From Amphiscolops sp. MND2022 (lineage: Eukaryota): a stretch of DNA of 64,000 nt. The DNA lies in contig OZ076409.1 of the NCBI GenBank assembly GCA_964187785.1, positions 73,100,001 through 73,164,000 on the forward strand, read 5' to 3'. Shown here piece by piece: positions 1 through 55,756 of this stretch. Below the pieces are notes generated by a model. The model did not search any database, was not told the DNA's origin, and worked only from the letters and a program-made list of their open reading frames with translations. Made by a program: the position numbers and the translations under genes. Position 1 is the stretch's first letter. Each line of letters opens with the position of its first letter.

Positions 1-1171
1 AAACTAGCCACACGATTTGGCTGAAATTTGGCACACGTACCCCCCTCGGCACGGTGAAGATGATTTCCTACTGACGTTTTTCCCGCAAAATTTTTTTTGT
101 TGTCCAAAATAACGGTTTTTGGGGTAAAATTTTGAATTTTTTTTAAATTTTATCTTATATCTCGCCACCGGTTTACGCTAGCGCTTCAAAACCCTGCTAA
201 AGAAAGCTCGCAAACTGTCTCAGGAATGCGGTGTGAAATTTTCAGCTCAATCGGACTCAAACTCAGGGAGATATAGCGTTTTTCCGGAGCGGGGGGGTTT
301 CATTTTTCTAACGGTCCAGCTTATCTTAGCCATTTTTTCGAAAATGTACTCGCCTAAAGACCTCCCCTGGCCGGTTTTATTCCCAGCAAAACCATTTGGC
401 CCTAAATACGGAGTTTCAGCGTTCCAGCATTCCCGGGCGAAAAGTTGTGGGACTTAGAAAATTTCAAAAATTTTCAAAATTTTTTTTTTCCGTTTTCCGC
501 CCTCCCCCCCTAGGGGAAAAGACCCCCCAACCAGTAATTTGAGTGATTTCATGTGGAAAGGCCATGTTTAGAGGAGAAAATGCCGTTTAGAACGTCTTTT
601 TATCTTGGCTCAACGTTGACTTATGACGTTTTGAAGGTGATGTTTGGAGGTGTAAAGCACGTGAATAGTAAACGTTATGAGTATTCATCTGATCTGAAAG
701 CCATTGAGATGCAACCTGTTTTGCTCAAAACGTAATTCATATCCGTTTGGTAGTCAATCAACACCCTTTGTTGTCATTTGACATCTTTTTTTGTTGATAT
801 AAGAAAAAATTTCGTGTACTTATTCATTTTTTTCTCATCAAATAACTTGAAACAGTTGAGTACATTCCATCCCCCCTTCACGGGGGAGATGAGAATGTAC
901 TCGCAAAAAGCCCCAAACTACGGCCCTTACCTTCCTGAGCTACGCAGTATAAAGATTGCATATTGGTTCCGACATTTTGATAGAGTTATATCTTGGTAAT
1001 CTGTCTGGGTATGCAGAAAAACCAGCACGTGCTTTTTTATACCAAGTTGCTCACAACGACATTTATTTTATATCAACGCCCCCATATTTATCAACGCCCC
1101 CCGTCCGTGGGCATGCCGAGGCATGCCCTTCGACGACGTATACCAAAATATGTTCGAGCGCGTTAGCCTAG
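1..1171. repeat. S-family unit, 5'-truncated by window edge
   Basis: Colinear with 3259-4430. Has the S internal palindrome (858-902) and the junction palindrome (1109-1128), and ends in CTAG at 1168-1171. Confidence 0.9.
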
Positions 1172-1228
1172 GTGCGGGGGGGTAACCCCAACAAATATAT
1201 TGGAGGATTCGGGTAGGGTCCTGAATCC
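1073..1228. other. Conserved unit-junction module (representative of 32 copies)
   Basis: TCAACGCC at 1073 and 1091, GGGCATGCC-GA-GGCATGCCC at 1109-1128, core CTAGGTG at 1168-1174, and hairpin GGATTCGGG-TAGGGT-CCTGAATCC at 1205-1228. The G of CTAG falls at 1171, 3142, 4430, 6402, 8376, 10349, 12320, 14306, 16279, 18269, 20243, 21488, 22775, 24048, 25334, 26606, 27893, 29886, 31857, 33145, 34419, 35691, 36955, 38246, 39524, 40813, 56550, 57842, 59111, 60393, 61670 and 62963. Confidence 0.92.
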
Positions 1229-3142
1229 GATTTTAACTCTAATAGCTATCGATAGGAAATCTTGCAAAAATTTCGGGATCTCGTGATCTAACCATAGGAT
1301 TTTAAAGTTGGAGCGGCCCCCACCAGATTTTCCGAAAATTAGCGCCCCCCACCGGGTTCCAGCGTGATTGAAATATTTTGTCGGGGTACACGGGCGACCG
1401 TTAGGGGTCATTTTAGGGGTAAAATTTATAAAAGTTAGCATAACTTTTTTCCTGTTGGTTTAAAACTTTAGGACCCTGCTAAAAGTTTCTTGACCATGTT
1501 GCAGGGGCCCCGGAGGTCCAAACCAAATTTTTCTATCTTGAAGCTATCTCCAAGTACCCCCCCGCTCAAACCGTTATTTTTCCGGAAACGCAGGTTTTTG
1601 ACCCGGAAGGAGTCGTCTGAGCGCGGGGTCGTTAGGTGATGTATTGGGGACGGCCTTGAGACGAAGTGGGGGACAAGTAGTTTGCCAACCTCAATTTACC
1701 CCCCGGACGGGAAATGACCGTTATATGAGCGTGAAAAATGCCCCCCTCCACGTTTTACCGCTATTTCCGGTGTGAAGGAGTGGGAGTAGCGCGTCGGGTG
1801 TTATATAACAAAAGTAGGTTTAGACAAGGACCTATCGGAAACATGTAGTTTGGGACCCCCTGGACCAACCCGTTAGCGGGCAATGGGGCTTCCGCCTCCT
1901 TTTTTTAGTGCTAAAACCGTAAAATGGGCATTGAGGGGTAAATATCTCGTGAACGCGTGGAGCAATCGTGTCCATCACTACTACAAGGTTTCATACCCAT
2001 GATATGGTGCCTTCAGGGGGGCAAACAGATTTCCGCTATCTATCACCGTTACCGACTTGGCCCCCCAGCCTAACCGCTATGTGACCGGAAATGTCACTTT
2101 TTGAGCCCAAAGGGTCGGTCCCAGCCGCGGAACGTTAGGTAACTTATTGTAGTACTCAATGAGACGAGTTGGGGGATATAGTTTCAGTCACCCCCCGTTA
2201 CCCCTTGGGACCGGAAATGACCGTTATGTGGGTAAAATTGCAATTTTTATACTTGTTCAAGTGTATTTAGGTGCGGAAGGAGTGGTAATAGGTGCTTGGA
2301 CACTATATGAGGTAAGGGAGGACGTGAGGCGAGCATTCGGAAAAAACCGTTATGTTGACCCTAAAGTCCCCCTGGTACCGTAAACGACCGGAAATGGTCA
2401 AATTTTGTGTCTATTGGGTACAAATGTTTTGTATTTTGTAGATAAAAGTATCTATTAGGTGTTTCGACGGTCTACAGTAGTGAACATAGTCATGAAACCT
2501 TGTGGGGTGTAACGGTATATAGCACCGGAAGTCAAACCGTTGGAGACAGGATAGGTTTTTTGGTTTTAAAATGTCTTTCGGCGTAATTTTTTCGACTCTT
2601 GTGGACTATTTTTAAAAATTAAAGTTTTTCCATATAGTTTCAGAGACTCCGAAACCTCAACCAACATAACCGTTACCTTATGATAGCCTTTCAAGTTGGC
2701 CTGGTGTCAACTTGGAAGCGCTATCCTTCTGAAATCGTTAATCAAGAGTGTTTTTGGGTAGGTATATATTGCATTAGTACCAATTAGAGCTTCATCAACA
2801 GTGTATCAACGACAAAAACTATGCCGTCATGATTCCGTTATTAGAATCATAGTGAGCAAATTGTTGAAAAAAATGGTTTTTTCCATACAAAATGTGTCCT
2901 AAATGCCAGGAAACCTATTTACCTAACAAATGGTATTAATTGGAATGTTTGTAACAGATTTATAAAAGTTCAAATTGAATATTACATTTCATTATGGAAG
3001 CTGAAACGTCATATTTTAGTTTAATTAACGTCAACGCCACACACTTTACATCAACGCACACCGTCTGTGGGCATGCCGAGGCATGCCCTTCGACGACGTA
3101 AGACAAATCCTTATCAAACGACGCCCGTACATCCCGGGCTAG
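1172..3142. mobile_element. L-family unit (1971 bp), putative non-autonomous mobile element
   Basis: Starts GTGCGGGGGG and ends palindrome-spacer-CTAG. Near-identical to 10350-12320. No long ORF. The repeat is directly visible; mobility is inferred. Confidence 0.65.
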
Positions 3143-4430
3143 GTGCCGGGATTTCTATTCGATAAAGTATGTGGCGCGCCTTGGGTAGGGTCCCTTGCGC
3201 GCTCTTGGGTATGGTGTTCACCAGCTAGGAAACAGGGGTCGATTTTTCGGGATCTCCTAAACTAGCCACACGATTTGGCTGAAATTTGGCACACGTACTC
3301 CCCTCGGCACGGTGAAGATGATTTCCTACTGACGTTTTTCCCGCAAAATTTTTTTTGTTGTCCAAAATAACGGTTTTTGGGGTAAAATTTTGAATTTTTT
3401 TTAAATTTTATCTTATATCTCGGCACGGGTTTACGCTAGCGCTTCAAAACCCTGCTAAAGAAAGCTTGCAAACTGTCTCAGGAATGCGGTGTGAAATTTT
3501 CAGCTCAATCGGACTCAAACTCAGGGAGATATAGCGTTTTTCCGGAGCGGGGGGGTTTCATTTTTCTAACGGTCCAGCTTATCTTAGCCATTTATTCGAA
3601 AATGTACTCGCCTAAAGACCTCCCCTGGCCGGTTTTATTCCCAGCAAAACCATTTGGCCCTAAATACGGAGTTTCAGCGTTCCAGCATTCCCGGGCGAAA
3701 AGTTGTGGGACTTAGAAAATTTCAAAAATTTTCAAAAATTTTTTTTTCGGTTTTCCACCCTCCCCCCCGAGGGGAAAAGACCCCCCAACCAGTAATTTGA
3801 GTGAATTCATGTGGAAAGGCCATGTTTAGAGGAGAAAAATCCCGTTTAAATTGTCTTTTTATCTTTATTCAACGTTGACTTATGACGTTTTGAAATTGAT
3901 GTTTGGAGGTGTGAAGCACGTGAAAAGTAAACGTTATGAGTATTTATCTGATCTGAAAGCCATTGAGATGCAACCTGTTTTGCTCAAAACGTAATTCATA
4001 TCAGTTTGGTAGTCAATCAACACCCTTTGTTGTCGTTTGACATACTTTTTTGTTGTTATAATAAAAAAATTTGTGTATTTATTCATTTTTTTCTCATCAA
4101 ATAACTTTAAACAGTTGAGTACATTCCATCCCCCCTTCACGGGGGAGATGAGAATGTACTCGCAAAAAGCCCCAAACTACGTCCCTTACCTTCCCGAGCT
4201 ACGCAGTATAAGAATTACATATTGGTTCCGACATTTTCATAGAGTTAAATCTTGGTAATCTGTCTGGATATGCAGAAAAACCAGCACGTGCTTTTTTATA
4301 CCAAGTTGCTCACAACGACATTTATTTTATATCAACGCCCCCATCTTTATCAACGCCCCCCATCCGTGGGCATGCCGAGGCATGCCCTTCGACGACGTAT
4401 ACCAAGATATGTTCGAGCGCGTTAGCCTAG
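3143..4430. mobile_element. S-family unit (1288 bp) between two L units, putative non-autonomous mobile element
   Basis: Starts GTGCCGGGATTTC and ends GTTAGCCTAG. Matching flanks are directly joined at 12320/12321. Close copies lie at 26607-27893 and 31858-33145. Confidence 0.7.
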
Positions 4431-7400
4431 GTGCGGGGGGGAAACCCCATCCCTTATCTTGGAGGATTCGGGTAGGGTCCTGAATCCGAGTTCAGTGCCG
4501 CCAGCTCTCAGTAGAAATCTGGGAAATTTTTTGCGATCTCGTGATCTAACCATAGGATTTTAAAGTTGGAGCGGCCCCCACCAGATTTTCCAAAGTTATT
4601 CGCCCCCCACCGGGTTCCAGCGTGATTGAAATATTTTGTCGGGGTACACGGGCGACCGTTAGGGGTCATTTTAGGGGTAAAATTTATATCCGGTCGCATA
4701 ACTTTTTTCCTGTTGGTTTAAAACTTTGGGACCCTGCTAAAAGTTTCTTGACCGTGTTGCGGTGGCTCCGGAGGTCCAAACCAATTTTTTCTATCTTGAA
4801 GCTATCTCCAAGTACCCCCCCGCCCAAACCGTTATTTTTCCGGAAACGCCGGTTTTTGACCCGGAAGGAGTCGTCTGAGCGCGGGGTCGTTAGGTGATGT
4901 TTTGGGGACGGCCTCGAGACGAAGCGGGGGATATATAGTTTGCCGACCCCAGTTTACCCCCCGCACGGGAAATGACCGTTATATGAGCGGGAAAAATGCC
5001 CCCCTCCACGTTTTACCGCTATTTCCGGTGTGAAGGAGTGGGAGTAGCGCGTCGGGTGTTATATAACAAAAGTAGGTTTAGACAAGGACCTATCGGAAAC
5101 ATGTAGTTTGGGACCCCCTGGACCAACCCGTTAGCGGGAAATGGGGCTTCCGCCTCCTTTTTTTACTGCTAAAACCGTAAAATGGGCATTGAGGGGTAAA
5201 TATCTCGTGAACGCGTGGAGCAATCGTGTCCATCACTACTACAAGGTTTCATACCCATGATATGGTGCCTTCAGGGGGGCAAACAGATTTCCGCTATCTA
5301 TCACCGTTACCGACTTGGCCCCCCAGCCTAACCGCTATGTGACCGGAAATGTCACTTTTTGAGCCCAAAGGGTCGGTCCCAGCCGGGGAACGTTAGGTAA
5401 CTTATTGTAGTACTCAATGAGACGAGTTGGGGGACATAGTTTCAGTCACCCCCCGTTACCCCTTGGGACCGGAAATGACCGTTAAGTGGGTAAAATTGCA
5501 TATTTTATACTTTTTCAAGTGTATTTAGGTGCGGAAGGAGTGGTAATAGGTGCTTGGACACTATATGAGGTAAGGGAGGACGTGAGGCGAGCATTCGGAA
5601 ATAACCGTTATGTTGACCCTAAAGTCCCCCTGGTACCGTAAACGACCGGAAATGGTCAAATTTTGTGTCTATTGGGTACAAATGTTTAGTATTTTGTAGA
5701 TAAAAGTATCTATTAGGTGTTTCGACGGTCTGCAATAGTGAACATAGTCATGAAACCTTGTGGGGGATAACGGGGTATATAGCGCCGGAAGTCCAAACCG
5801 TTGGACACAGGATAGGTTTTTGGTTTGAAAATGTCTTTCGGCGTACTTTTGTCGACTATTATGGACAATTATTAAAAATTAAAGTTTTTCCATATAGTTT
5901 CAGAGACTCCGAAACCTCAACCAACATAACCGTTGCATTTTGATAGCCTTTCAAGTTGGCCTGGTGTCAACTTGGAAGCGCTATCCTTCTGAAATCGTTA
6001 ATCAAGAGTGTTTTTGGGTAGGTATATATTGCATTAGTACCAATTAGAGCTTCATCAACAGTGTATCAACGACAAAAACTATGCCGTCATGATTCCGTTA
6101 TTAGAATCATAGTGAGCAAATTGTTGAAAAAAATGGTTTTTTCCATACAAAATGTGTCCTAAATGCCAGGAAACCTATTTACCTAACAAATGATATTAAT
6201 TGGAATGTATGTAACAAATTTATAAAAGTTCAAATTGAATATTACATTTCATTATGGAAGCTGAAACGTTATATTTTAGTTTAATTAACGTCAACGCCAC
6301 ACACTTTACATCAACGCCCATCGTCTGTGGGCATGCCGAGGCATGCCCTTCGACGACGTATGACAAATCCATATCAAACGACGCCCGTACATCCCGGGCT
6401 AGGTGCGGGGGGGAAACCCCAACAAAAATTTTGGAGGATTCGGGTAGGGTCCTGAATCCGAGTTCAGTGCTGCCAGCTTTCGTTAAGAAAATTTGGATAG
6501 GATTCGGGATCTCGTGATCTAACCATAGGATTTTAAAGTTGGAGCGGCCCCCACCAGATTTTCCGAAAATTAGCGCCCCCCACCGGGTTCCATACCCCGG
6601 AAAATTTTTTTCTGGCCACACGGGCGACCGTTAGGGGGTCATTTTAAGGGTAAAATTCATATTGGGCCACATAACTTTTTTTCTGTTGATTTAAAACTTT
6701 GGGACCCTGCTAAAAGTTTCTTGACCTTGTTGCAGTGGCTCCGGAGGTCGAAACCAAATTTTTCTATCTTGAAGCTATCTCCAAGTACCCCCCCGCCCAA
6801 ACCGTTATTTTTCCGGAAACGCAGGTTTTTGACCCGGAAGGAGTCGTCTGAGCGCGGGGTCGTTAGGTGATGTATTGGGGACGGCCTTGAGACGAAGTGG
6901 GGGACATGTAGTTTGCCGACCCCAGTTTACCCCCCGGACGGGAAATGACCGTTATATGAGCGGGAAAAATGCCCCCTTCCACGTTTTACCGCTATTTCCG
7001 GTGTGAAGGAGTGGGAGTAGCGCGTCGGGTGTTATATAACAAAAGTAGATTTAGACAAGGACCTATCGGAAACATGTAGTTTGGGACCCCCTGGACCAAC
7101 CCGTTAGCGGAAAATGGGGCTTCCGCCTCCTTTTTTTACTGCTAAAACCGTAAAATGGGCATTGAGGGGTAAATATCTCGTGAACGCGTGGAGCAATCGT
7201 GTCCATCACTACTACAAGGTTTCATACCCATGATATGGTGCCTTCAGGGGGGCAAACAGATTTCCGCTATCTATCACCGTTACCGACTTGGCCCCCCAGC
7301 CTAACCGCTATGTGACCGGAAATGTCACTTTTTAAGCCCAAAGGGTCGGTCCCAGCCGGGGAATGTTAGGTAACTTATTGTAGTGCTAATTGAGACGAGC

Positions 7401-10400
7401 TGGGGGATATAGTTTCAGTCACCCCCCGTTACCCCTTAGGACCGGAAATGACCGTTATGTGGGTAAATTTGCTTTTTTTGTACTTTTTGGAGGGCATTTA
7501 GATGCGGAAGGAGCGGTAATAGGTGCTTGGACACTATATGAAGGAAGGGAGGACGTGAGGCGAGCATTCGGAAATAACCGTTATGTTGACCCTAAAGTCC
7601 CCCTGGTACCGGAAGTGACCCGTAATGGTCAAATTTTGTGTTTAAAGGGTACAAATGTTTGGTGTTTTATGGATAACAGTACCTATTAGGTGTTTCGACG
7701 GTCTGCAGTCGTGAACATAGTCATGAAACCTTGTGGGGGGTAACGGTATATAGCACCGAAAGTCCAAACCGTTGGAGACAGGATACGTTTTTTGGTTTTA
7801 AAATGTCTTTCGGCCTACTTTTGTCGACTATTATGGACTATTTTTGAAAAATAAAGTTTTTCCATATAGTTTCAGCGACTCCGAAACCTCAACCAACATA
7901 ACCGTTACCTTATGATAGCCTTTCAAGTTGGCCTGGTGTCAACTTGGAAGGGCTATCCTTCAAAAGTCATTAATCAAGTTTGTTTTTGAGTATGTTTGTT
8001 TTACTTTAGAATCAATTAGAGCTTCAAGAAAATATTGCCAACGATAAAAACTATGTCGTGATGATTCCGTTATTAGAATAATAGTTACCAAAATGTTGAT
8101 AAAGTTGATTTTTTACATTTCAAATCTGTCCTAAATGCCAGAAAACCTCTTTACCAAACTAATGGTATTGATTGAATTGTATATAGCAGCTAATAAAAGT
8201 TAAATTGAATATTACGTTTCATTATGGAAGCTGAAACGTCAAATTATAGTTTAATTAACGTCAACGCCACATACTTTACATCAACGCCCACCGTCCGTAG
8301 GCATGCCGAGGCATGCCTTTCGACGACGTATACCAAAATCCACCCACACAACACCAACGAGCGCGGTAGCAGCTAGGTGCGGGGGGGTAACCCCTACAAA
8401 GATATTGGAGGATTCGGGTAGGGTCCTGAATCCGAGTTCAGTGCTGCCAGCTATCGTTAGGGATTTGAGAAAATTTTGCCGATCTCGTGATCTAACCGTA
8501 GGATTTTAAAGTTGGAGCGGCCCCCACCAGATTTTCCAAAGTTATTCGCCCCCCACCGGGTTCCAGCGTGATTGAAATATTTTGACGGGGTGCACGGGCG
8601 ACCGTTAGGGGTCATTTTGGGGGTAAAATTTATATCCGGTCGCATAACTTTTTTCCTGTTGGTTTAAAACTTTGGGACCCTGCTGAAAGTTTCTTGACCG
8701 TGTTGCAGTGGCTCCGGAGGTCCCAACCAAATTTTTCTATCTTGAAGCTATCTCCAAGTACCCCCCCGCCCAAACCGTTATTTTTCCGGAAACGCAGGTT
8801 TTTGACCCGGAAGGAGTCATCTGAGCGCGGGGTCGTTAGGTGATGTATTGGGGACGGCCTTGAGACGAAGCGGGGGATATATAGTTTGCCGACCCCAGTT
8901 TACCCCCCGGACGGGAAATGACCGTTATATGAGCGGGAAAAATGCCCCCCTCCACGTTTTACCGCTATTTCCGGTGTGAAGGAGTGGGAGTAGCGCGTCG
9001 GGTGTTATATAACAAAAGTAGGCTTAGACAAGGACCTATCGGAAACATGTAGTTTGAGACCCCCTGGACCAACCCGTTAGCGGGAAATGGGGCTTCCGCC
9101 TCCTTTTTTTACTGCTAAAACCGTAAAATGGGCATTGAGGGGTAAATATCTCGTGAACGCGTGGAGCAATCGTGTCCATCACTACTACAAGGTTTCATAC
9201 CCATGATATGGTGCCTTCAGGGGGGCAAACAGATTTCCGCTATCTATCACCGTTACCGACTTGGCCCCCCATCCTAACCGCTATGTGACCGGAAATGTCA
9301 CTTTTTGAGCCCAAAGGGTCGGTCCCAGCCGGGGAACGTTAGGTAACTTATTGTAGTGCTAATTGAGACGAGCTGGGGGATTTAGTTTCAGTCACCCCCC
9401 GTTACCCCTTAGGACCGGAAATGACCGTTATGTGGGTAAATTGGCATTTTTTGTACTTTTTGAAGGGCATTTAGATGCGGAAGGAGTGGTAATAGGTGCT
9501 TGGACACTATATGAAGGAAGGGAGGACGTGAGGCGAGCATTCGGAAATAACCGTTATGTTGACCCTAAAGTCCCCCTGGTACCGGAAGTGACCCGTAATG
9601 GTCAAATTTTGTGTTTAAAGGGTACAAATGTTTGGTGTTTTATGGATAACAGTACCTATTAGGTGTTTCGACGGTCTGCAGTCGTGAACATAGTCATGAA
9701 ACCTTGTGGGGGGTAACGGTATATAGCACCGAAAGTCCAAACCGTTGGAGACAGGATACGTTTTTTGGTTTTAAAATGTCTTTCGGCCTACTTTTGTCGA
9801 CTATTATGGACTATTTTTGAAAAATAAAGTTTTTCCATATAGTTTCAGAGACTCCGAAACCTCAACCAACATAACCGTTACCTTATGATAGCCTTTCAAG
9901 TTGGCCTGGTGTCAACTTGGAAGGGCTATCCTTCAAAAGTCATTAATCAAGTTTGTTTTTGAGTATGTTTGTTTTACTTTAGAATCAATTAGAGCTTCAA
10001 GAAAATATTGCCAACGATAAAAACTATGTCGTGATGATTCCGTTATTAGAATAATAGTTAAAAAATTTTGATAAAGTTGATTTTTTACATTTCAAATCTG
10101 TCCTAAATGCCAGAAAACCTCTTTACCAAACAAATGGTATTGATTGAATTGTATAAAACAGCTAATAAAAGTTCAAATTGACTATTACGTTTCATTATGG
10201 AAGCTGAAACGTCATATTATAGATTCATTACTGTCAACGCCACATACTTTACATCAACGCCCACCGTCCGTAGGCATGCCGAGGCATGCCTTTCGACGAC
10301 GTATACCAAATTCCACCCACACAACACCCTCGAGCGCGGTAGCAGCTAGGTGCGGGGGGGTAACCCCAACAAATATATTGGAGGATTCGGGTAGGGTCCT

Positions 10401-13400
10401 GAATCCGATTTTAACTCTAATAGCTATCGATAGGAAATCTTGCAAAAATTTCGGGATCTCGTGATCTAACCATAGGATTTTAAAGTTGGAGCGGCCCCCA
10501 CCAGATTTTCCGAAAATTAGCGCCCCCCACCGGGTTCCAGCGTGATTGAAATATTTTGACGGGGTACACGGGCGACCGTTAGGGGTCATTTTGGGGGTAA
10601 AATTTATATCCGGTCGCATAACTTTTTTTCTGTTGATTTAAAACTTTGGAACCCTGCTAAAAGTTTCTTGACCGTGTTGCAGGGGCCCCGAAGGTCCAAA
10701 CCAAATTTTTCTATCTTGAAGCTATCTCCAAGTACCCCCCCGCTCAAACCGTTATTTTTCCGGAAACGCAGGTTTTTGACCCGGAAGGAGTCGTCTGAGC
10801 GCGGGGTCGTTAGGTGATGTATTGGGGACGGCCTTGAGACGAAGTGGGGGACAAGTAGTTTGCCAACCTCAATTTACCCCCCGGACGGGAAATGACCGTT
10901 ATATGAGCGTGAAAAATGCCCCCCTCCACGTTTTACCGCTATTTCCGGTGTGAAGGAGTGGGAGTAGCGCGTCGGGTGTTATATAACAAAAGTAGGTTTA
11001 GACAAGGACCTATCGGAAACATGTAGTTTGGGACCCCCTGGACCAACCCGTTAGCGGGAAATGGGGCTTCCGCCTCCTTTTTTTAGTGCTAAAACCGTAA
11101 AATGGGCATTGAGGGGTAAATATCTCGTGAACGCGTGGAGCAATCGTGTCCATCACTACTACAAGGTTTCATACCCATGATATGGTGCCTTCAGGGGGGC
11201 AAACAGATTTCCGCTATCTATCACCGTTACCGACTTGGCCCCCCAGCCTAACCGCTATGTGACCGGAAATGTCACTTTTTGAGCCCAAAGGGTCGGTCCT
11301 AGCCGGGGAACGTTAGGTAACTTATTGTAGTACTCAATGAGACGAGTTGGGGGATATAGTTTCAGTCACCCCCCGTTACCCCTTGGGACCGGAAATGACC
11401 GTTATGTGGGTAAAATTGCAATTTTTATACTTTTTCAAGTGTATTTAGGTGCGGAAGGAGTGGTAATAGGTGCTTGGACACTATATGAGGTAAGGGAGGA
11501 CGTGAGGCGAGCATTCGGAAATAACCGTTATGTTGACCCTAAAGTCCCCCTGGTACCGTAAACGACCGGAAATGGTCAAATTTTGTGTCTATTGGGTACA
11601 AATGTTTTGTATTTTGTAGATAAAAGTATCTATTAGGTGTTTCGACGGTCTACAGTAGTGAACATAGTCATGAAACCTTGTGGGGGGTAACGGTATATAG
11701 CACCGGAAGTCAAACCGTTGGAGACAGGATAGGTTGTTTGGTTTTAAAATGTCTTTCGGCGTACTTTTTTCGACTCTTGTGGACTATTTTTAAAAATTAA
11801 AGTTTTTCCATATAGTTTCAGAGACTCCGAAACCTCAACCAACATAACCGTTACCTTATGATAGCCTTTCAAGTTGGCCTGGTGTCAACTTGGAAGCGCT
11901 ATCCTTCTGAAATCGTTAATCAAGAGTGTTTTTGGGTAGGTTTATATTGCATTAGTACCAATTAGAGCTTCATCAACAGTGTATCAACGACAAAAACTAT
12001 GCCGTCATGATTCCGTTATTAGAATCATAGTGAGCAAATTGTTGAAAAAAATGGTTTTTTCCATACAAAATGTGTCCCAAATGCCAGGAAACCTATTTAC
12101 CTAACAAATGGTATTAATTGGAATGTTTGTAACAGATTTATAAAAGTTCAAATTGAATATTACATTTCATTATGGAAGCTGAAACGTCATATTTTAGTTT
12201 AATTAACGTCAACGCCACACACTTTACATCAACGCACACCGTCTGTGGGCATGCCGAGGCATGCCCTTCGACGACGTATGACAAATCCTTATCAAACGAC
12301 GCCCGTACATCCCGGGCTAGGTGCGGGGGGGAAACCCCATCCCTTATCTTGGAGGATTCGGGTAGGGTCCTGAATCCGAGTTCAGTGCCGCCAGCTCTCA
12401 GTAGAAATCTGGGAAATTTTTTGCGATCTCGTGATCTAACCATAGGATTTTAAAGTTGGAGCGGCCCCCACCAGATTTTCCAAAGTTATTCGCCCCCCAC
12501 CGGGTTCCAGCGTGATTGAAATATTTTGTCGGGGTACACGGGCGACCGTTAGGGGTCATTTTGGGGGTAAAATTTATATCCGGTCGCATAACTTTTTTCC
12601 TGTTGGTTTAAAACTTTGGGACCCTGCTAAAAGTTTCTTGACCTTGTTGCAGTGGCTCCGGAGGTCCAAACCAAATTTTTCTATCTTGAAGCTATCTCCA
12701 AGTACCCCCCCGCCCAAACCGTTATTTTTCCGGAAACGCAGGTTTTTGACCCGGAAGGAGTCGTCTGAGCGCGGGGTCGTTAGGTGATGTATTGGGGACG
12801 GCCTTGAGACGAAGCGGGGGACATGTAGTTTGCCGACCCCAGTTTACCCCCCGGACGGGAAATGACCGTTATATGAGCGGGAAAAATGCCCCCTCCACGT
12901 TTTACCGCTATTTCCGGTGTGAAGGAGTGGGAGTAGCGCGTCGAGTGTTATATAACAAAAGTAGGTTTAGACAAGGACCTATCGGAAACATGTAGTTTGG
13001 GACCCCCTGGACCAACCCGTTAGCGGGAAATGGGGCTTCCGCCTCCTTTTTTTACTGCTAAAACCGTAAAATGGGCATTGAGGGGTAAATATCTCGTGAA
13101 CGCGTGGAGCTACGGTGTCCATCACTACTACAAGGTTTCATACCCATGATATGGTGCCTTCAGGGGGGCAAACAGATTTCCGCTATCTATCACCGTTACC
13201 GACTTGGCCCCCCAGCCTAACCGCTATGTGACCGGAAATGTCACTTTTTGAGCCCAAAGGGTCGGTCCCAGCCGGGGAACGTTAGGTAACTTATTGTAGT
13301 ACTCAAGGAGACGAGTTGGGGGATATAGTTTCAGTCAACCCCCGTTACCCCTTGGGACCGGAAATGACCGTTATGTGGGTAAATTTGCATTTTTTATACT

Positions 13401-16400
13401 TTTTCAAGTGCATTTATGTGCGGAAGGAGTGATAATAGGTGCTTGGACACTCTATGATGTAATGGAGGTCGTAAGGAGAGCATTCGGGAATAACCGTTAT
13501 GTTGACCCCAAAGTCCCCCTGGTACCGTTAACGACCGGAAATGGCCAAATTTTGTGTCTATTGGGTACAAATGTTTAGTATTTTATGGATAAAAGTACCT
13601 GGAAGGTGTTTTAAAGGCCTCCAGAAGTGAACATAGTCATGAAACCTTGTGGGGGGTAACGGTATATAGCACCGGAAGTCCAAACCGTTGGTCACAGAAT
13701 AGGTTTTTTGGTTTCAAAATGTCTTTAGGCATATTTTTGTGGGTTGAATCGTCATAATATCAACTAATACGGACTTTTTTTCGGAAATAAAATTTTTTCA
13801 CATTAGTTTCAGGGACCTCCAATGCTTCAGTCAACATAACCGTTACATTTTGATAGCCTTTCAAGTTGACCTGGTGTCAACTTGGAAGGGCTATCCTTCT
13901 AAAATCGTTAATCAAGAGTGTTTTTGGGTAGGTATATGTTGCATTAGTACCAATTAGAGCTTCATCAACAGTTTGCCAACGGCAAAAACGATGTCGTGAT
14001 AATTCCGTTATAAAAATATTAGTTAACAAATTGTTTTCAAAGTTGATTTTTTCCATTAAAAATGTGTCCTAATGCCACCAAATTGAATAAAATGGTATTG
14101 ACTAAAACTAAATAACAATGAAAAAGAAGATCAACATTTTTATTAGTTCTCATTATGGAAGCAGAAACCTCACGTTTTAGTTTAATTAACGTCAACGCCA
14201 CATACTTTACATCAACGCCCACCGTCTGTGGGCATGCCGAGGCATGCCCTTCGACGACGTATACCAAACACCCTCCATATCTACACCCACCCGCGGTAGC
14301 CGCTAGGTGCGGGGGGGAAACCCCATCCCTTATCTTGGAGGATTCGGGTAGGGTCCTGAATCCGAGTTCAGTGCCGCCAGCTCTCAGTAGAAATCTGGGC
14401 ATTTTTTTGCGATCTCGTGATCTAACCATAGGATTTTAAAGTTGGAGCGGCCCCCACCAGATTTTCCAAAGTTATTCGCCCCCCACCGGGTTCCAGCGTG
14501 ATTGAAATATTTTGACGGGGTACACGGGCGACCGTTAGGGGTCATTTTAGGGGTAAAATTTATAAAAGTTCGCATAACTTTTTTCCTGTTGGTTTAAAAC
14601 TTTAGGACCCTGCTAAAAGTTTCTTGACCATGTTGCAGGGGCCCCGGAGGTCCAAACCAAATTTTTCTATCTTGAAGCTATCTCCAAGTACCCCCCCGCC
14701 CAAACCGTTATTTTTCCGGAAACGCCGGTTTTTGACCCGGAAGGAGTCGTCTGAGCGCGGGATCGTTAGGTGATGTTTTGGGGACGGCCTCGAGACGAAG
14801 CGGGGGATATATAGTTTGCCGACCCCAGTTTACCCCCCGCACGGGAAATGACCGTTATATGAGCGGGAAAAATGCCCCCCTCCACGTTTTACCGCTATTT
14901 CCGGTGTGAAGGAGTGGGAGTAGCGCGTCGGGTGTTATATATCAAAAGTAGGTTTAGACAAGGACCTATCGGAAACATGTAGTTTGGGACCCCCTGGTCC
15001 AACCCGTTAGCGGGAAATGGCGTTTCCGCGTCCTTTTTTTACTGCTAAAACGGTAAAATGGGCATTGAGGGGTAAATATCTCGTGAACGCGTGGAGCAAT
15101 CGTGTCCATCACTACTACAAGGTTTCATACCCATGATATGGTGCCTTCAGGGGGGCAAACAGATTTCCGTTATCTATCACCGTTACGGACTTGGCCCCCC
15201 AGCCTAACCGCTATGTGACCGGAAATGTCACTTTTTGAGCCCAAAGGGTCGGTCTCAGCCAGGGAACGTTAGGTAACTTATTGTAGTACTCATTGAGACG
15301 AGTTGGGGGATATAGTTTCAGTCACCCCCCGTTACCCCTTGTGACCGGAAATGACCGTTATGTGGGTAAAATTACGATTTTTGTACTTTTTGAAGGGCAA
15401 TTAGGTGCGGAAGGAGTGGTAATAGGTGCTTGGACACTATATGAGGTAAGGGAGGACGTGAGGCGAGCATTCGGAAATAACCGTTATGTTGACCCTAAAG
15501 TCCCCCTGGTACCGTAAACGACCGGAAATGGTCAAATTTTGTGTCTATTGGGTACAAATGTTGGGTATTTTGTAGATAAAAGTATCTATTAGGTGTTTCG
15601 ACGGTCTGCAGTAGTGAACATAGTCATGAAACCTTGTGGGGGGTAACGGTATATAGCACCGGAAGTCCAAACCGTTGGTGACAGGATAGGTTTTTTGGTT
15701 TTAAAATGTCTTTCGGCGTACTTTTGTTGACTATTATGGACTATTTTTAAAAATTAAAGTTTTTCCATATAGTTTCAGAGACTCCGAAACCTCAACCAAC
15801 ATAACCGTTACCTTATGATAGCCTTTCAAGTTGGCCTGGTGTCAACTTGGAAGGGCTATCCTTCAAAAATCGTCAATCAAGTGTGTTTTTGGGTATGTTT
15901 GTATCATTTTAGAATCAATTAGAGCTTCAAGAAAAGTTTCCCAACGACAAAAACTATGTCGTGAAGATTCCGTTACTAGAATTATAGTTAGCAAATTGTT
16001 GAGAAAAATGTTTTTTTTTCCAAATTAAATGTGTCCTAAATGCCAGGAAACCTATTTAACTAACAAATGGTATTGATTGGAATGTATGTAACAGATTTAT
16101 AAAAGTTCAAATTGAATATTACCTTTCAATATGGAAGCTGAAACGTAATATTTTAGTTTAATTAACGTCAACGCCACACACTTTACATCAACGCCCACCG
16201 TCTGTGGGCATGCCGAGGCATGCCCTTCGACGACGTATACCAAATACATACCTAACGACGCCCGTACATCCCGGGCTAGGTGCGGGGGGAAACCCCATCC
16301 CTTATCTTGGAGGATTCGGGTAGGGTCCTGAATCCGAGTTCAGTGCCGCCAGCTCTCAGTAGAAATCTGGGAAATTTTTTGCGATCTCGTGATCTAACCA

Positions 16401-19400
16401 TAGGATTTTAAAGTTGGAGCGGCCCCCACCAGATTTTCCAAAGTTATTCGCCCCCCACCGGGTTCCAGCGTGATTGAAATATTCTGACGGGGTACACGGG
16501 CGACCGTTAGGGGTCATTTTAGGGGTAAAATTTATATAATGTCGCATAACTTTTTTCCTGTTGGATTAAAACTTTGGGACCCTGCTAAAAGTTTCTTGAC
16601 CGTGTTGCGGGGGCTCCGGAGGTCCAAACCAAATTTTTCTATCTTGAAGCTATCTCCAAGTACCCCCCCGCCCAAACCGTTATTTTTCCGGAAACGCAGG
16701 TTTTTGACCCGGAAGGAGTCGTCTGAGCGCGGGGTCGTTAGGTGATGTATTGGGGACGGCCTCGAGACGAAGCGGGGGATATATAGTTTGCCGACCCCAG
16801 TTTACCCCCCGCACGGGAAATGACCGTTATTTGAGCGGGAAAAATGCCCCCTCCACTTTTTACCGCTATTTCCGGTGTGAAGGAGTGGGAGTAGCGCGTC
16901 GGGTGTTATATATCAAAAGTAGGTTTAGACAAGGACCTATCAGGAACATGTGGTTTGGGACCCCCTGGTCCAACCCGTTAGCGAGAAATGGGGCTTCCGC
17001 CTCCTTTTTTTACTGCTAAAACCGTAAAATGGGCATTGAGGGGTAAATATCTCGTGAACGCGTGGAGCTACGGTGTCCTTCACTACTACAAGGTTTCATA
17101 CCCATGATATGGTGCCTTCAGGGGGGCAAACAGATTTACGCTATCTATTACCGTTACGGACTTGGCCCCCCAGCCTAACCGCTATGTGACCGGAAATGTC
17201 ACTTTTTGGGCCCAAAGGGTCGATCCTAGCCGGGCAACGTTAGGTAACATATTGTAGTACTCATTGAGACGAGTTGGGGGATATAGTTTCAGTCACCCCC
17301 CGTTACCCCTTGAGACCGGAAATGACCGTTATGTGAGTAGAATTGCAATTTCTATACCTTTTGAAGGGCATTCAGATGCGGAAGGAGTGGTTATAGGTGC
17401 TTGGACAACATATGATGTAATGGAGGTCGTGAGGAGAGCATTCGGAAGTAACCGTTACGTTGACCCCAATGTCCTCTTGGTACCGTTAACGAACGGAAAT
17501 GGCCAAATTTTGTGTTTATAGGGTACAAATGTTTGGTATTTTATGGATAAAAGTACCTGGAAGGTGTTTTAAAGGCCTCCAGAAGTGAACATAGTCATGA
17601 AACCTTGTGGGGGGTAACGGTATATAGCACCGGAAGTCCAAACCGTTGGTTACAGAATAGGTTTTTTGGTTTCAAAATGTCTTTAGGCGTAGTTTTGTGG
17701 GTTGAATTGTCATAATATCAACTAATACGGACTTTTTTCGGAAATAAAATTTTTTCACATTAGTTTCAGGGACCTCCAATGCTTCAGTCAACATAACCGT
17801 TACATTTTGATAGCCTTTCAAGTTGGCCTGGTGTCAACTTGGAAGGGCTATCCTTCTAAAATCGTTAATCAAGAGTGTTTTCGGGTAGGTATATGTTGCA
17901 TTAGTACCAATTAGAGCTTCATCAAGAGTTTGCCAACGGCAAAAACGATGTCGTGATAATTCCGTTATAAGAATATTAGTTAACAAATTGTTTACTAAGT
18001 TGATTTTTTCAATGTAAAATGTGTCCTGATGCCACCAAATTGAATAAAATAATGAATGGTATTGACTAAAACTAAATAACAATGAAAAAGAATATCAACA
18101 TTTTAATAGGTCTCGTTATGGAAGCTGAAACCTCACGTTTTAACATAATTAACGTCAACGCCACATACTTTACATCAACGCCCACCGTCTGTGGGCATGC
18201 CGAGGCATGCCCTTCGACGACGTATACCAAACAACCTCCATATCTACACCCGATTGCGGTAGCGGCTAGGTGCGGGGGGGTAACCCCAACAAAGATATTG
18301 GAGGATTCGGGTAGGGTCCTGAATCCGATTTTAACTCTAATAGCTATCGATAGGAAATCGTGCAAAAATTTCGGGATCTCGTGATCTAACCATAGGATTT
18401 TAAAGTTGGAGCGGCCCCCACCAGATTTTCCAAAGTTATTCGCCCCCCACCGGGTTCCAGCGTGATTGAAATATTTTGACGGGGTACACGGGCGACCGTT
18501 AGGGGTCATTTTGGGGGTAAAATTTATATCCGGTCGCATAACTTTTTTCCTGTTGGTTTAAAACTTTGGGACCCTGCTAAAAGTTTCTTGACCGTGTTGC
18601 AGTGGCTCCGGAGGTCCAAACCAAATTTTTCTATCTTGAAGCTATCTCCAAGTACCCCCCCGCTCAAACCGTTATTTTTCCGGAAACGCAGGTTTTTGAC
18701 CCGGAAGGAGTCGTCTGAGCGCGGGGTCGTTAGGTGATGTTTTGGGGACGGCCTTGAGACGAAGTGGGGGACATGTAGTTTGCCAACCTCAGTTTACCCC
18801 CCGGACGGGAAATGACCGTTATATGAGCGGGAAAATTGCCCCCCTCCACGTTTAACCGCTATTTCCGGTGTGAAGGAGTGGGAGTAGCGCGTCGGGTGTC
18901 ATATATCAAAAGTAGGTTTAGACAAGGACCTATCGGAAACATGTAGTTTGGGACCCCCTGGTCCAACCCGTTAGCGAGAAATGGCGCTTCCGCCTCCTTT
19001 GTTTACTGCTAAAACCGTAAAATGGGCATTGAGGGGTAAATATCTCGTGAACGCGTGGAGCAATCGTGTCCATCACTACTACAAGGTTTCATACCCATGA
19101 TATGGTGCCTTCAGGGGGGCAAACAGATTTCCGCTATCTATCACCGTTACCGACTTGGCCCCCCAGCCTAACCGCTATGTGACCAGAAATGTCACTTTTT
19201 GAGCCCAAAGGGTCGGTCCCAGCCGGGGAACGTTAGGAAACTTATTGTAGTACTCAATGAGACGAGTTGGGGGATATAGTTTCAGTCACCCCCCGTTACC
19301 CCTTGGGACCGGAAATGACCGTTATGTGGGTAAAATTGCAATTTTTATACTTTTTCAAGTGTATTTAGGTGCGGAAGGCGTGGTAATAGGTGCTTGGACA

Positions 19401-20243
19401 CTATATGAGGTAAGGGAGGACGTGAGGCGAGCATTCGGAAATAACCGTTATGTTGACCCTAAAGTCCCCCTGGTACCGTAAACGACCGGAAATGGTCAAA
19501 TTTTGTGTCTATTGGGTACAAATAATTATTATTTTGTAGATAAAAGTTTCTTTTAGGTGTTTCGACGGTCTGCAATAGTGAACATAGTCATGAAACCTTG
19601 TGGGGGGTAACGGGGTATATAGCACCGGAAGTCCAAACCGTTGGACACAGGATAGGTTTTTGGTTTGAAAATGTCTTTCGGCGTACTTTTGTCGACTATT
19701 ATGGACTATTATTAAAAATTAAAGATTTTCCATATAGTTTCAGAGACTCCGAAACCTCAACCAACATAACCGTTACATTTTGATAGCCTTTCAAGTTGGC
19801 CTGGTGTCAACTTGGAAGCGCTATCCTTCTGAAATCGTTAATCAAGAGTGTTTTTGGGTAGGTATATATTGCATTAGTACCAATTAGAGCTTCATCAACA
19901 GTGTATCAACGACAAAAACTATGCCGTCATGATTCCGTTATCAGAATCATAGTGAGCAAATTGTTGAAAAAAATGGTTTTTTCCATACAAAATGTGTCCT
20001 AAATGCCAGGAAACCTATTTACCTAACAAATGGTATTAATTGGAATGTATGTAACAGAGTTATAAAAGTTCAAATTGAATATTACATTTCATTATGGAAG
20101 CTGAAACGTCATATTTTAGTTTAATTAACGTCCACGCCACATACTTTACATCAACGCCCACCGTCTGTGGGCATGCCGAGGCATGCCCTTCGACGACGTA
20201 TACCAAATACATACCCAAACGACGCCCGTACATCCCGGGCTAG
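4431..20243. repeat. Eight tandem L-family units
   Basis: Units 4431-6402, 6403-8376, 8377-10349, 10350-12320, 12321-14306, 14307-16279, 16280-18269 and 18270-20243 (1971-1990 bp). The same short ORFs recur with ~1.97-kb period. Confidence 0.95.
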
Positions 20244-23200
20244 GTGCCGGTGTATTTTTACACAATGGGGGATGTTGCGCGTGTGGGGAGGGTCCCTGAC
20301 GCGCTTCCGTGGTTTCGGGTCTTCTAACCTATGATAGCGTGACACCTGACTTCGATCTCGTAAACTAGCCGTACGATTTGGCTGAAATTTGGCACTCGTA
20401 CCCCCCTCGGCACGGTGAAGATGATTTCCTACTGACGTTTTCCCCGCTAAACATTTTTTGTTGACCAAAATAACGGTTTTTGGGGTAAAATTTTCAACTT
20501 TTTTTAAATTTCATCTTATATCTCGCCACGGGTTAACGCTAGCGCTTCCAAACCTTGCTGACGAAACCTTGCAAACTGTCTCAGGAATGCTGTGTGAAAT
20601 TTTCAGCTCAATCGGACCTAAACTTGAGGAGATATAGCGTTTTTCCGGAGCGGGGGGGTTTCATTTTTCTAACGGTCCAGCTTATCTTTGCCATTTTTTC
20701 GAAAATGCACTCGCCTAAAGGCCTCCCCTGGCCGGTTTTATTCCCAACAAAACCATTTGGCCCTAAATACGGAGTTTCAGCGTTCCAGCATTCCCGGGCG
20801 AAAAGTTGTGGGAATTTTTTCCGTTATTTGGGCCCTCAAAGTGGGGGAAAAGACCCCCCAACCAGTAAAGCAAGTGAATGCTTGTGGAAAGCCCTTGTTT
20901 AGACGAGAAAAATGCCGTTTAGAACGTCTTTTTATCTTAACTTGACATTGACTTTTGTCGTTTTGAAGGTGACCGTTAGATACGGAAAATTGATGTTTTG
21001 AGTATTTATCCCATCTGAAAGCCATTGAGATACAACATGTTTTGCTCAAAACGTGTTTCATTGCAGTTTCGCTGTCCATTATCACCCTTTGGTGTCTTTT
21101 CACGTAATTTTCGTTTCTATAATAACAATTTTTTTGTGTATTTATTCATTTTTTTCTCATCAAATAACTTGAAACAGTTGAGTACATTCCATCTCCCTTC
21201 CCGGGGGAGATGAGAATGTACTCGCTAAAGGTCAGGAACTACGGTCTATATCTTCCACAACACAAAAAGGATTGCAAATGGTTTCAGTTTGTTGCAGAAA
21301 ACTTCGTTTTGCCCTCTGTGACTCGACAAAATGAACGTTTCTTACTTACTTTGAAACTCAGCATACCACAACTCATCTCTAACGTCAGCGCCCCCCTACT
21401 TGCATCAACGCCCACCGTCCGTGGGCATGCCGAGGCATGCCCTTCGACGACGTATACCAAGATATACCTGGAGCGCGGTAGCCGCTAGGTGGCCGGAAAT
21501 TTTTTTTTCATCAAAATCTTTGCCATTGGGGGAGGGGCCCCGGATGGCCAGTAGTACGGGATAGCTTCCTACCAAATCCAGATGGAAAAAACGTGATTTT
21601 GGAAACTAGCCGTCAGAATTTGCTCAAATTTTGCATACGGCTTCCTATAACAATCCTAAGAACTAATCCCTACTGGCATTTTGCCCAAAAAACGCAAAAA
21701 GTTGGTCAAAATCTTAGTTTTTTGGTCAAAAAATGGCAATTTTTCGAAAAAAATTTTTTTCAGAGACAATTACTCGTAACTGGTTCACCCAGCGCAAAAA
21801 CGCCTAGCTGATTTATTGTTGGGCACTTCATGAGGAGTGCGTATACAAATTTTCGTCCAGATCGGAAAAAAATTGACTAAGTATTAGCCGGAATTCGGAC
21901 GCATTTTTTCGCAAATTTTTGAAAACCTAGTCTATCTCTGCCGTTTTTTGCCCAGATTTTTTTCCAGGTCCTCTCCTAAAGGCCTCCCCTGGCCGGTTTA
22001 CTTCCCAGAAAAACCATTTGGCCCTAAATACGGAGTTTCAGCGTTCTAGCATTCCCGGGCGAAAAGATGTGGGACTTAGAAAAAATTCAAAATTTTTCAA
22101 AAATTTTTTTTTTCGTTTTCCGGCCCCCCAATGAAGGGGAACGACCCCCCAACGAGGACTTTTGGTGAATTCACGTGGAAAGGCCTTGTTTTGTGGAGAA
22201 AATTGCCGTTTAGAGCGACTTTTTATCTTAACTTGACGTTGACCTCTGTCGTTTTGAATTTGATATTAGTATGTTTTGAGCATGTGAAAAGTTGATGATT
22301 TCAGTTGTTCTCTCGTGTTCAAGCCATTGAGATACAAGCGGTAGTGATCAAAATGTGATTTATCGCAATTTGGTGGTGTTTTTGGTGTATTTTGATTCTT
22401 TTAAATAAAAAGTTGTTCTTTATATATTTGGTGTATTGATTCAAATGAACAAGAAACAGTTGAGTACATTTCATCTCCCCCCTTGTGGGGGAGATGAGGA
22501 TGTACCCGCTAAATGACACGCACAATGGCCCACTTTTACTTTTATGCGACGTTTTCTAGGCTTTTGCGCAAGCCCACTAATATTTAGACTGGTTTCCTTT
22601 TCTTTTACTCCAAAATTTTCCGTACTAACTACCTTACGCACCACCAGCTCAACGTAACATCTGTAACGTCAACGCCACACACTCTCACTAACGCCCACCG
22701 TCCGTGGGCATGCCGAGGCATGCCCTTCGACGACGTATGCCAAATAGCGCCACAGGGCGCAAACTTGTCCGCTAGGTGCCGGGATTTCCATTCGATAAGG
22801 AATTCTGCGCGTGTGGGTAGGGCCCCTGGCGCGCTCCTGTGTTTTCGGTTTTCCTACTCCTAAATAGACCCCCTGAATTCCGGGATCTCCTAAACTATCC
22901 ATACGATTTGGCTGAAATTTGGCACACGTACCCCCCTCGGCACGGTGAAGATGATTTCCTACTGACGTTTTTCCCGCTAAACATTTTTTGTTGACCAAAA
23001 TAACGGTTTTTGGGGTAAAATTTTGAACTTTTTTTAAATTTCATCTTATATCTCGCCACGGGTACACGCTAGCGCTTCCAAACCTTGCTGACGAAAGTTT
23101 GCAAACTGTCTCAGGAATGCTGTGTGAAATTTTCAGCTCAATCGGACTTAAACTCGAGGAGATATAGCGTTTTCCCGGAGCGGGGGGGTTTCAATTTTCT

Positions 23201-26200: not shown

Positions 26201-27893
26201 CACCCTTTGGTGTCTTTTCACTTATTTTTCGTTTCTATAATAACAATTTTTTTGTGTATTTATTCATTTTTTTCTCATCAAATAACTTGAAACAGTTGAG
26301 TACATTCCATCTCCCTTCCCGGGGGAGATGAGAATGTACTCGCTAAAGGTCAGGAACTACGGTCTATATCTTCCACAACACAAAAGGGATTGCAAATGGT
26401 TTCAGTTTGTCGCAGAAAACTTCTTTTTGCCCTCTGTGACTCGACAAAATGAACGTTTCTTACTTACTTTGAAACTCAGCATACCACAACTCATCTCTAA
26501 CGTCAGCGCCCCCCTACTTGCATCAACGCCCACCGTCCGTGGGCATGCCGAGGCATGCCCTTCGACGACGTATAGCAAGATATACCTGGAGCGCGGTAGC
26601 CGCTAGGTGCCGGGATTTCTATTCGATAAAGTATGTGGCGCGCCTTGGGTAGGGTCCCTTGCGCGCTCTTGGGTATGGTGTTCACCAGCTAGGAAACAGG
26701 GGTCGATTTTTCGGGATCTCCTAAACTAGCCACACGATTTGGCTGAAATTTGGCACACGTACTCCCCTCGGCACGGTGAAGATGATTTCCTACTGACGTT
26801 TTTCCCGCAAAATTTTTTTTGTTGTCCAAAATAACGGTTTTTGGGGTAAAATTTTGAATTTTTTTTAAATTTTATCTTATATCTCGCCACCGGTTTACGC
26901 TAGCGCTTCAAAACCCTGCTAAAGAAAGCTTGCAAACTGTCTCAGGAATGCGGTGTGAAATTTTCAGCTCAATCGATCTTAAACTCGGGGAGATATAGCG
27001 TTTTTCCGGAGCGGGGGGGTTTCATTTTTCTAACGGTCCAGCTTATCTTTGCCATTTTTTCGAAAATGCACTCGCCTAAAGGCCTCCCCTGGCCGGTTTT
27101 ATTCCCAGCAAAACCATTTGGCCCTAAATACGGAGTTTCAGCGTTCCAGCATTCCCGGGCGAAAAGTTGTGGGACTTAGAAAAGTTCAAAAATTTTCAAA
27201 AAATTTTTTTTCCGTTTTCCGCCCTCCCCCCCGAGGGGAAAAGACCCCCCAACCAGTAATTTGAGTGAATTCATGTGGAAAGGCCATGTTTAGAGGAGAA
27301 AAATACCGTTTAGATCGTCTTTTTATCTTTATTCAACATTGACTTATGACGTTTTGAAGGTGATGTTTGGAGGTGTGAAGCACGTGAAAACTAAACGTTA
27401 TGAGTATTCATCTGATCTGAAAGCCATTGAGATGCAACCTGTTTTGCTCAAAACGTAATTCATATCAGTTTGGTAGTCAATCAACACCCTTTGTTGTCAT
27501 TTGACATCTTTTTTTGTTGATATAAGAAAAAATTTCGTGTATTTATTCATTTTTTTCTCATCAAATAACTTGAAACAGTTGAGTACATTCCATCCCCCCT
27601 TCACGGGGGAGATGAGAATGTACTCGCAGAAAGCCCCGAACTACGGCCCTTACCTTCCTGAGCTACGCAGTATAAAGATTGCATATTGGTTCCGTCATTT
27701 TGATAGAGTTATATCTTGGTAATCTGTCTGGGTATGCAGAAAACCATCACGTGCTTTTTTATACCAAGTTGCTCACAACGACATTTATTTTATATCAACG
27801 CCCCCATATTTATCAACGCCCCCCGTCCGTGGGCATGCCGAGGCATGCCCTTCGACGACGTATACCAAGATATGTTCGAGCGCGTTAGCCTAG
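20244..27893. repeat. Six tandem S-family units of several subfamilies
   Basis: Units 20244-21488 (1245 bp, internal deletion), 21489-22775 (divergent), 22776-24048, 24049-25334, 25335-26606 and 26607-27893. Confidence 0.93.
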
Positions 27894-40800: not shown

Positions 40801-40813
40801 CGGTAGCCGCTAG
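31858..40813. repeat. Seven tandem S-family units of several subfamilies
   Basis: Units 31858-33145, 33146-34419, 34420-35691 (divergent), 35692-36955 (divergent), 36956-38246, 38247-39524 and 39525-40813. Confidence 0.93.
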
Positions 40814-41298: not shown

Positions 41299-41302
41299 TA
41301 AT

Positions 41303-41330
41303 CCTGCTCCAGGGTTAATTTTGGTCACTT
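41303..41330 (+). repeat. Left terminal inverted repeat
   Basis: CCTGCTCCAGGGTTAATTTTGGTCACTT; its reverse complement matches 55728-55755 at 27/28 positions. Confidence 0.9.
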
Positions 41331-55727: not shown

Positions 55728-55755
55728 AAGTGACCAAAATTAACCCTGGTGCAGG
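55728..55755 (-). repeat. Right terminal inverted repeat
   Basis: AAGTGACCAAAATTAACCCTGGTGCAGG. It also forms the right arm of a local 16-bp hairpin (55710-55746). Confidence 0.9.
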
Positions 55756-55756
55756 G

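Follow-up and report, generated by a model that had tools for sequence, protein, structure and literature searches.

The 20-bp dyad that recurs along the window (the whole 64-kb stretch of DNA analysed here) is real, and it is an end signal that gene-less units have in common. We regard the chances as about even that it acts as the cis-site of non-autonomous, Helitron-like single-strand elements, which would join at their own junction and be moved in trans. The dyad had been picked out by an earlier reading made from the letters of the DNA (below, the sequence-only reading), which put weight on a double substitution that keeps the pairing of the stem. The better functional evidence comes from two features which that reading missed, namely a 7-bp point at which the unit families switch and a covarying hairpin on the start side of the units. 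The positions of all features are collected in Table 1.

Table 1. Features of the array, given for one representative copy where a feature recurs (positions in the window).
Feature	Position	Strand	Remarks
Polar head-to-tail array	1..64000	+	31 complete and two partial units, one 14.5-kb unrelated insertion
Internal long hairpin of B-type units	858..902	+	~250 bp before the dyad; all 21 B-type segments
Two direct repeats TCAACGCC	1073-1080 and 1091-1098 (1073..1098)	+	18-20 nt apart
Subterminal block, ~57 bp (-19 to +37), including unpaired flanks	1090..1146	+	Common to all unit families and L023
Extended imperfect dyad, outer arms CGTC (1102-1105) and GACG (1132-1135)	1102..1135	+	
Dyad GGGCATGCC-GA-GGCATGCCC, 20 bp	1109..1128	+	One per junction, 32 in the window
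Variable tail, part of the upstream unit	1140..1167	+	
Junction CTAGGTG, invariant	1168..1174	+	32 copies on the + strand, one per dyad
Family A unit, example U01, 1971 bp	1172..3142	+	
Start-side hairpin, core GGG(T/G)AGGG(T/C/G)CC	1205..1228	+	37-41 nt after the junction
Internal 11-bp inverted repeat of family A	2688..2718	+	11/11 units, no covariation seen
B-type unit, example U02, 1288 bp	3143..4430	+	
A...T dyad variant, unit U04	8299..8318	+	
A...T dyad variant, unit U05 (sister of U04)	10272..10291	+	

The 11 complete copies of family A (1971–1993 bp) are 86–99% identical, and the 20 complete B-type copies (1245–1293 bp, U26 being counted after removal of its insertion) are 59–99% identical. 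The sequence-only reading had spoken of two families; A and B are indeed distinct, but the spread among the 20 B-type units means that the diversity was understated. A and B can be aligned with each other only over ~80 bp around the dyad and over short pieces at the start, as expected for shared cis-ends. All 31 complete units are full length and none is nested in another; the unit bodies contain 3208 AT dinucleotides and 66 copies of AGGTG, yet no unit was inserted at any of them.

The array switches between families A and B six times, in every case at CTAGGTG and with the tail of the upstream family retained. Over the whole array, the similarity of the tails tracks the upstream unit (Spearman 0.52–0.56) and not the downstream one (0.01–0.04), and the nearest tail comes from the same upstream family at 32 of 32 junctions, all six A/B switches included. 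The dyad itself is ruled out as the unit boundary, because the tail belongs with the upstream unit. Homologous exchange within the 57-bp block around the dyad would give tails of the downstream family; the tails are those of the upstream family, which sets the boundary at the 7-mer. The switch is confined to 7–8 bp lying outside the 57-bp homology block, which points to site-specific joining. At the 18 B–B junctions no pair of segments correlates across the junction, and over all 32 junctions the upstream and downstream bodies correlate weakly (0.12–0.28). If the cut is placed at AG|GT, each unit starts with GT and ends with AG, in the manner of an intron.

A metagenome scan for the 20-mer listed 26 loci, of which 25 are unrelated contexts and one, L023, aligns to the window beyond the motif. 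L023 is a 1172-bp metagenome contig, ~70% identical to B-unit bodies, and its junction reads CGAGGTG, not CTAGGTG. An unrelated GC-rich contig, L003, carries a longer repeat around the 20-mer in two inverted copies (3287–3306 and 4251–4270) and has no similarity to the window outside the motif. Viral scans returned 0, 0, 9 and 15 loci, the last two sets without a BLAST match to the window, and two scans of prokaryote genomes for the motif returned 0 and 0. Together with the repeat content, this absence leads us to think that the DNA comes from a eukaryote, probably an invertebrate. A coding partner is absent from the window, where the longest stop-to-stop frame is 170 aa; there are 43 frames of 100–170 aa, and in the 16 of these scanned against Pfam the best hits fell below the cut-off. 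The autonomous partner would encode RepHel in HLE1 and HLE2, a tyrosine recombinase in Cryptons and a Y1 Rep transposase in Replitrons. Nor was a transposase, an autonomous or solo copy, or an empty site seen in the 64 kb. One sequencing run (share 0.20), searched with 1172–4430, gave 17 contig pieces, mostly of low depth and none spanning, and no information about solo termini. Motif searches of the supplements of PMC4067079 and PMC3212892 (10 and 6 files) gave no sequence match. In the literature search the dyad string occurred in 0 papers, and neither junction nor array was described in titles or the opening lines of abstracts; Repbase and most subscription papers lay outside this search, and the elements may be catalogued there.

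The array is not purely the product of independent insertions, since the A units are clustered along it (5 switches, p=0.0002), U04 and U05 are adjacent sisters, and the pair U26–U27 resembles U30–U31 at 95–96%. Ordinary recombination and local duplication also act on it: units are internally mosaic, and among the B units of the window the first ~100 nt are exchanged. Some tails are common to otherwise dissimilar B units (36893, 57778 and 62900), which indicates that exchange also takes place near the dyad. In L023, positions 884–1172 are A-like for the first 60 nt and go on B-like, which means that families exchange start modules and bodies. In the array CpG shows no depletion (observed/expected 1.01). 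A stretch ~110 nt after the junction (3250–3290 and its equivalents) is shared weakly by A, B and L023, and is reminiscent of motifs close to the start of non-autonomous Helitron-like repeats in invertebrates. It has no match in the supplements of PMC4067079 and PMC3212892.

The one foreign block in the array is a 14.5-kb insertion in U26 (41296–55756), flanked by a 2-bp CT duplication. Its terminal inverted repeats are imperfect: both ends read CCCT...CCAGGGTTAATTTTGGTCAC inward, the left end having 5 extra bases. Many subterminal copies of GGTTAATTTT are found in both orientations, together with an internal satellite of about 22 copies with a 535/546-bp period, and there is no ORF of at least 100 aa. 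The insertion is presumably a non-autonomous element of the CACTA/CMC type. Between 47.5 and 52.9 kb a block of ~3.2 kb of the satellite appears to be repeated, as the pattern of 546/535 spacings recurs, which suggests a higher-order duplication or a feature of the assembly.

We analysed the occurrence and variation of the dyad. The pattern GGCATGCC-NN-GGCATGCC with at most two mismatches has 32 matches in the window, every one on the + strand, and 0 in 100 dinucleotide-preserving shuffles of the window. At 28 of the 32 sites the sequence is GGGCATGCCGAGGCATGCCC, which may equally be described as two self-complementary GGCATGCC octamers 10 bp apart. As had been noted before, a dyad stands at every junction of both families (32 of 32, one per CTAGGTG), and both of the sites reported to have exchanged their outer bases with pairing kept (2 of 32) do read A...T. 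The two remaining sites have single substitutions, GT at 39470 and C>T at 56494. The dyad is predicted to fold, as DNA, into an 8-bp stem capped by a CGAG loop (z about -4 for both strands), and both single changes lie within this 4-nt loop, so that the GT change had been placed correctly, while the one at 56494 had been taken for a stem change; the sole stem change within the 20-mer is the compensated A...T. The outer arms had been claimed at all 32 junctions. GACG is present at all of them and CGTC at 31, the exception being CATC at 4361–4364, which is uncompensated.

The columns invariant over all 32 junctions make up 14 of 16 in the stem, 5 of 6 among the inner unpaired or mismatched positions and 7 of 8 in the outer arms, compared with 74% of the columns of family A and 30% of those of B. 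The statement of the sequence-only reading that the adjacent sequence varies needs correcting for the immediate surroundings of the dyad, as the block from -19 to +37 is conserved and five of the six columns beside the stem never change. Set against the unit bodies, the dyad is among the best-kept parts of the B units (15 of 1270 windows are equal or better) but is not exceptional within family A (526 of 1957 20-column windows). The stem is hardly more fixed than the unpaired flanks, and the dyad matches the p53 consensus (see below), from which the sequence itself seems to be read. What is kept is the sequence of the dyad, not pairing alone. The proposal of a selected hairpin or dyad site near the end of a mobile unit is supported: the dyad is kept across families otherwise nearly unlike and in the ~70%-identical L023, its two single changes are in the loop, and its one stem change is compensated.

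The compensatory double change is weak evidence. The two units that carry it, U04 and U05, lie side by side, are 95.7% identical and have in common 32 private alignment columns, all in the second half, that occur in no other A unit. As adjacent sisters they represent one event. A check of pair variation over 12 of the 32 junctions plus L023, a subset that excluded the uncompensated site at 4361, found that one of 12 pairs varies, changed on both sides. With one event in the window and one varying pair, the double change does not serve as the covariation evidence it had been offered as. The A...T form is also present in L023, which is identical to 8281–8331 over 51 nt; it may have arisen there independently or go back to an old allele. 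By itself the compensatory change is of little importance, and the wider anatomy weighs more.

The junction of L023 (compare L023 875–890 with 1115–1128 of the window), CGAGGTGC, looks like the middle of the dyad, CGAGGCATGC; the junction of the window, CTAGGTGCC, is less like it. This likeness could be chance, or it could hint at a guide-like pairing between the dyad and the cut site.

A p53 element consists of two RRRCWWGYYY decamers with a spacer of 0–13 (PMC3485254). The dyad matches two such decamers without a spacer at 19 of 20 positions in 31 of the 32 sites and at 18 of 20 in the other; these sites are the only p53-consensus matches (at most two mismatches) in the 64 kb, and the A...T and C>T variants preserve R and Y of the consensus. 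p53 sites have been described in a non-autonomous DNA transposon (PMC3485254). A p53-type role of the dyad can be compatible with the explanation that we prefer, and the match could be tested cheaply as a clue to host control. The p53 match also lends itself to a different explanation, which we think rather improbable: the array would be a long-period complex satellite of old transposon origin, maintained by unequal exchange, and the block would be a selected box for a host protein of the p53 family or of a centromere type. The conserved unpaired flanks and the mosaic, partly duplicated units would suit such a satellite, and a 19-bp box shared across repeat families is known from Meloidogyne centromeres (PMC13404089). 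However, p53 likeness is common to any GC-rich CATG dyad, and a satellite leaves unexplained why all six switches fall at a 7-bp site 40–55 nt off the homology block, as well as the covarying start-side hairpin and the paired double change.

The core of the start-side hairpin occurs 32 times on the + strand and 0 times on the - strand, and is present in L023 too. Its stem is GGATTC/GAATCC in family A, GCGCGC/GCGCGC, GCGCGT/ACGCGC or GCCAT/ATGGC in the B types and GGCGC/GCGCC in L023. Fifteen distinct sets of arms fold at a mean of -8.4 kcal/mol, versus -4.3 kcal/mol for 144 swapped dissimilar arms, a statistic that is overstated because the 15 sets are related and form about five stem classes, so that the independent cases are nearer five. 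The own arm ranked first or second in 13 of the 15 sets; one (59108) folds poorly. Different units have unrelated stems that still pair, and according to the predicted folds this hairpin behaves as a structure-only signal. The internal hairpin of the B-type units has an A–T to G–C pair change near its base in L023.

Upstream of the dyad, the pair of direct repeats TCAACGCC (at most one mismatch) is found at 31 of 32 junctions, and exact copies of the repeat number 54 on the + strand and 0 on the - strand. Between dyad and CTAG lie 50–54 nt in family A and 39–46 nt in B. Helical phasing of this distance (~40 versus 51 nt) was considered and dropped, as 46 nt occurs three times and L023 has 48. 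Folds of the tail before CTAG are weak and inconsistent (-0.5 to -7.2 kcal/mol), and for this reason a canonical small hairpin immediately before CTAG was rejected.

Several conserved hairpins, a polar array and a precise target might also be expected of RNA-mediated site-specific retroposons, whose structured ends would be read as RNA and which would insert at the junction. This is very unlikely: none of the 31 units is 5′-truncated, there is no poly(A) or simple-repeat tail, Rfam gave 0 matches at the gathering score over the 64 kb and 0 at E<=1 in 1–8000, and a tRNA search gave 0 in the window.

The anatomy would fit the following mechanism, which is the one we prefer. Families A and B would share a trans-acting mobilizer, most likely an HUH (Helitron-like) rolling-circle transposase encoded elsewhere. 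The enzyme would bind the two direct repeats and the dyad as a sequence-specific site, nick within C(T/G)AGGTG and peel one strand off, with the structure-only hairpin at the other end as the second signal. The circle would close end to start, its junction again being CTAGGTG, and new or copied units would join at the array junctions, where the same two-sided signal is present, giving a polar mixed array of full-length units. CTAG is palindromic and might therefore form the end of either strand. In the Helraiser terminator hairpin a swap of the stem kept ~90% of activity and a change of the loop did not (PMC4778049). The dyad, with its fixed stem sequence and tolerant loop, is the opposite of this, and the likeness to the Helitron 3′ hairpin drawn by the sequence-only reading is not supported; by the Helraiser pattern the dyad would serve badly as a terminator and the start-side hairpin would be better suited, and by this analogy the polarity of the array may be the reverse of what was assumed there. 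If junction-targeted joining is true, transposons could in this way build up long mixed tandem arrays while sparing genes, and a sequence-specific eukaryotic integrase would be implied, to be found through a coding element with these ends.

The same junctions could be the work of a tyrosine recombinase (YR). The units would then be non-autonomous Crypton-like or cassette-like elements whose circles recombine at the 7-bp core, the dyad and the direct repeats being arm or accessory sites. The switches are precise and identical 7-mers flank every unit, although the latter is true of any head-to-tail array. Cryptons are without terminal inverted repeats and have terminal direct repeats of 4–6 bp as presumed recombination substrates, YR spacers measure 6–8 bp, and non-autonomous animal Cryptons exist (PMC3212892). 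Nevertheless, we consider a tyrosine recombinase unlikely. There are no conserved inverted arms of 11–13 bp, positions -1 to -8 being kept in only 14–25 of 32 junctions; covarying hairpins suit single-strand chemistry better; the PMC3212892 supplements gave no match to the motifs; and no YR gene was seen in the window.

We compared the units with the known Helitron-like groups. HLE1 is characterized by TC at its 5′ end, by a short hairpin together with CTRR and by insertion at an A-T target, and HLE2 by short terminal inverted repeats and a T-T target (PMC11417382). The units resemble HLE1 in being without terminal inverted repeats, in CTAG at the junction, in a GC-rich subterminal palindrome, in shared ends on unrelated bodies and in precise head-to-tail junctions (PMC4778049, PMC5876387, PMC2267711 and PMC11417382). 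Helraiser circles have precise head-to-tail junctions, with one end essential (PMC4778049 and PMC5876387); head-to-tail pairs of Helitrons with CTAG|TC junctions are described, even of different elements (PMC2267711), and so are tandem Helitron-like arrays (PMC11934779). As for the 3′ CTRR, CTAG is found at 32 of 32 junctions of the window, but L023 has CGAG, which departs from CTRR. In contrast to HLE1, the units start with GTG and not TC: GTG follows CTAG in 32 of 32 cases, and CTAG read on the minus strand is followed by C or G. The HLE1 hairpin is short and lies 10–12 nt before the 3′ end, whereas here the dyad, its stem sequence fixed, is 39–54 nt from CTAG. A second hairpin stands at the other end, and many families are mixed in one array.

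A hairpin near both ends (here the dyad before the junction and the covarying hairpin after it) is a likeness to HLE2. So is the distance of the dyad from the end, as 3′ signals lie 38–60 bp from the terminus in HINEs (PMC4067079) and 38–51 bp in FoHeli1/2 (PMC5148889). The dyad is farther from CTAG than in typical Helitrons, where the spacing is about 11 nt, as the sequence-only reading had pointed out; given the HINE and FoHeli signals, such a distance is in itself nothing unusual within the wider group. Unlike HLE2, the boundary is CTAGGTG, with no T-rich boundaries or TT target. An inverted repeat of 11–18 nt shared by the unit ends, as in HLE2, was not found, the longest exact match being 5–8 nt, and any 12-mer inverted repeat with at most two mismatches occurs in 7 of 31 units versus 14 of 31 in a control window. 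End repeats of the HLE2 type were rejected, since a 7–8-nt match in some B units is absent from A and L023 and is below the control.

The third-clade Helitrons of Paramecium are similar in their non-CTRR ends, inferred target specificity, strict orientation and stem-loops with compensatory changes (10.1101/2025.11.06.686955). By that account they differ in inserting into telomere repeats and in having known transposases, and the units here abut without a spacer. Replitrons and Cryptons share with the units a short direct repeat at both ends and the lack of a terminal inverted repeat (PMC10288648 and PMC3212892), and Replitron-1 has a right-end palindrome and shared ends of ~53 bp (PMC10288648). 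In contrast to these elements, the array junctions are precise, with no fuzzy ends or variable duplications, and mixed self-targeted arrays are not among the traits described in the available parts of these papers.

It is possible, if somewhat unlikely, that we are dealing with a new group of elements outside HLE1 and HLE2, whose enzyme would integrate at the element's own end-to-start junction (C-T/G-AGGTG, flanked by the fixed dyad and the structure-only hairpin) and produce an integron-like cassette array of unrelated non-coding units, and whose dyad may recruit a host p53-family protein. The anatomy described here provides the likely cis-signals, namely the pair of direct repeats, the fixed dyad, the 7-bp junction and the covarying hairpin, of an element that would escape standard Helitron finders seeking TC...CTRR or terminal inverted repeats. 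The units work like a Helitron-type element and should not be filed as either HLE1 or HLE2.
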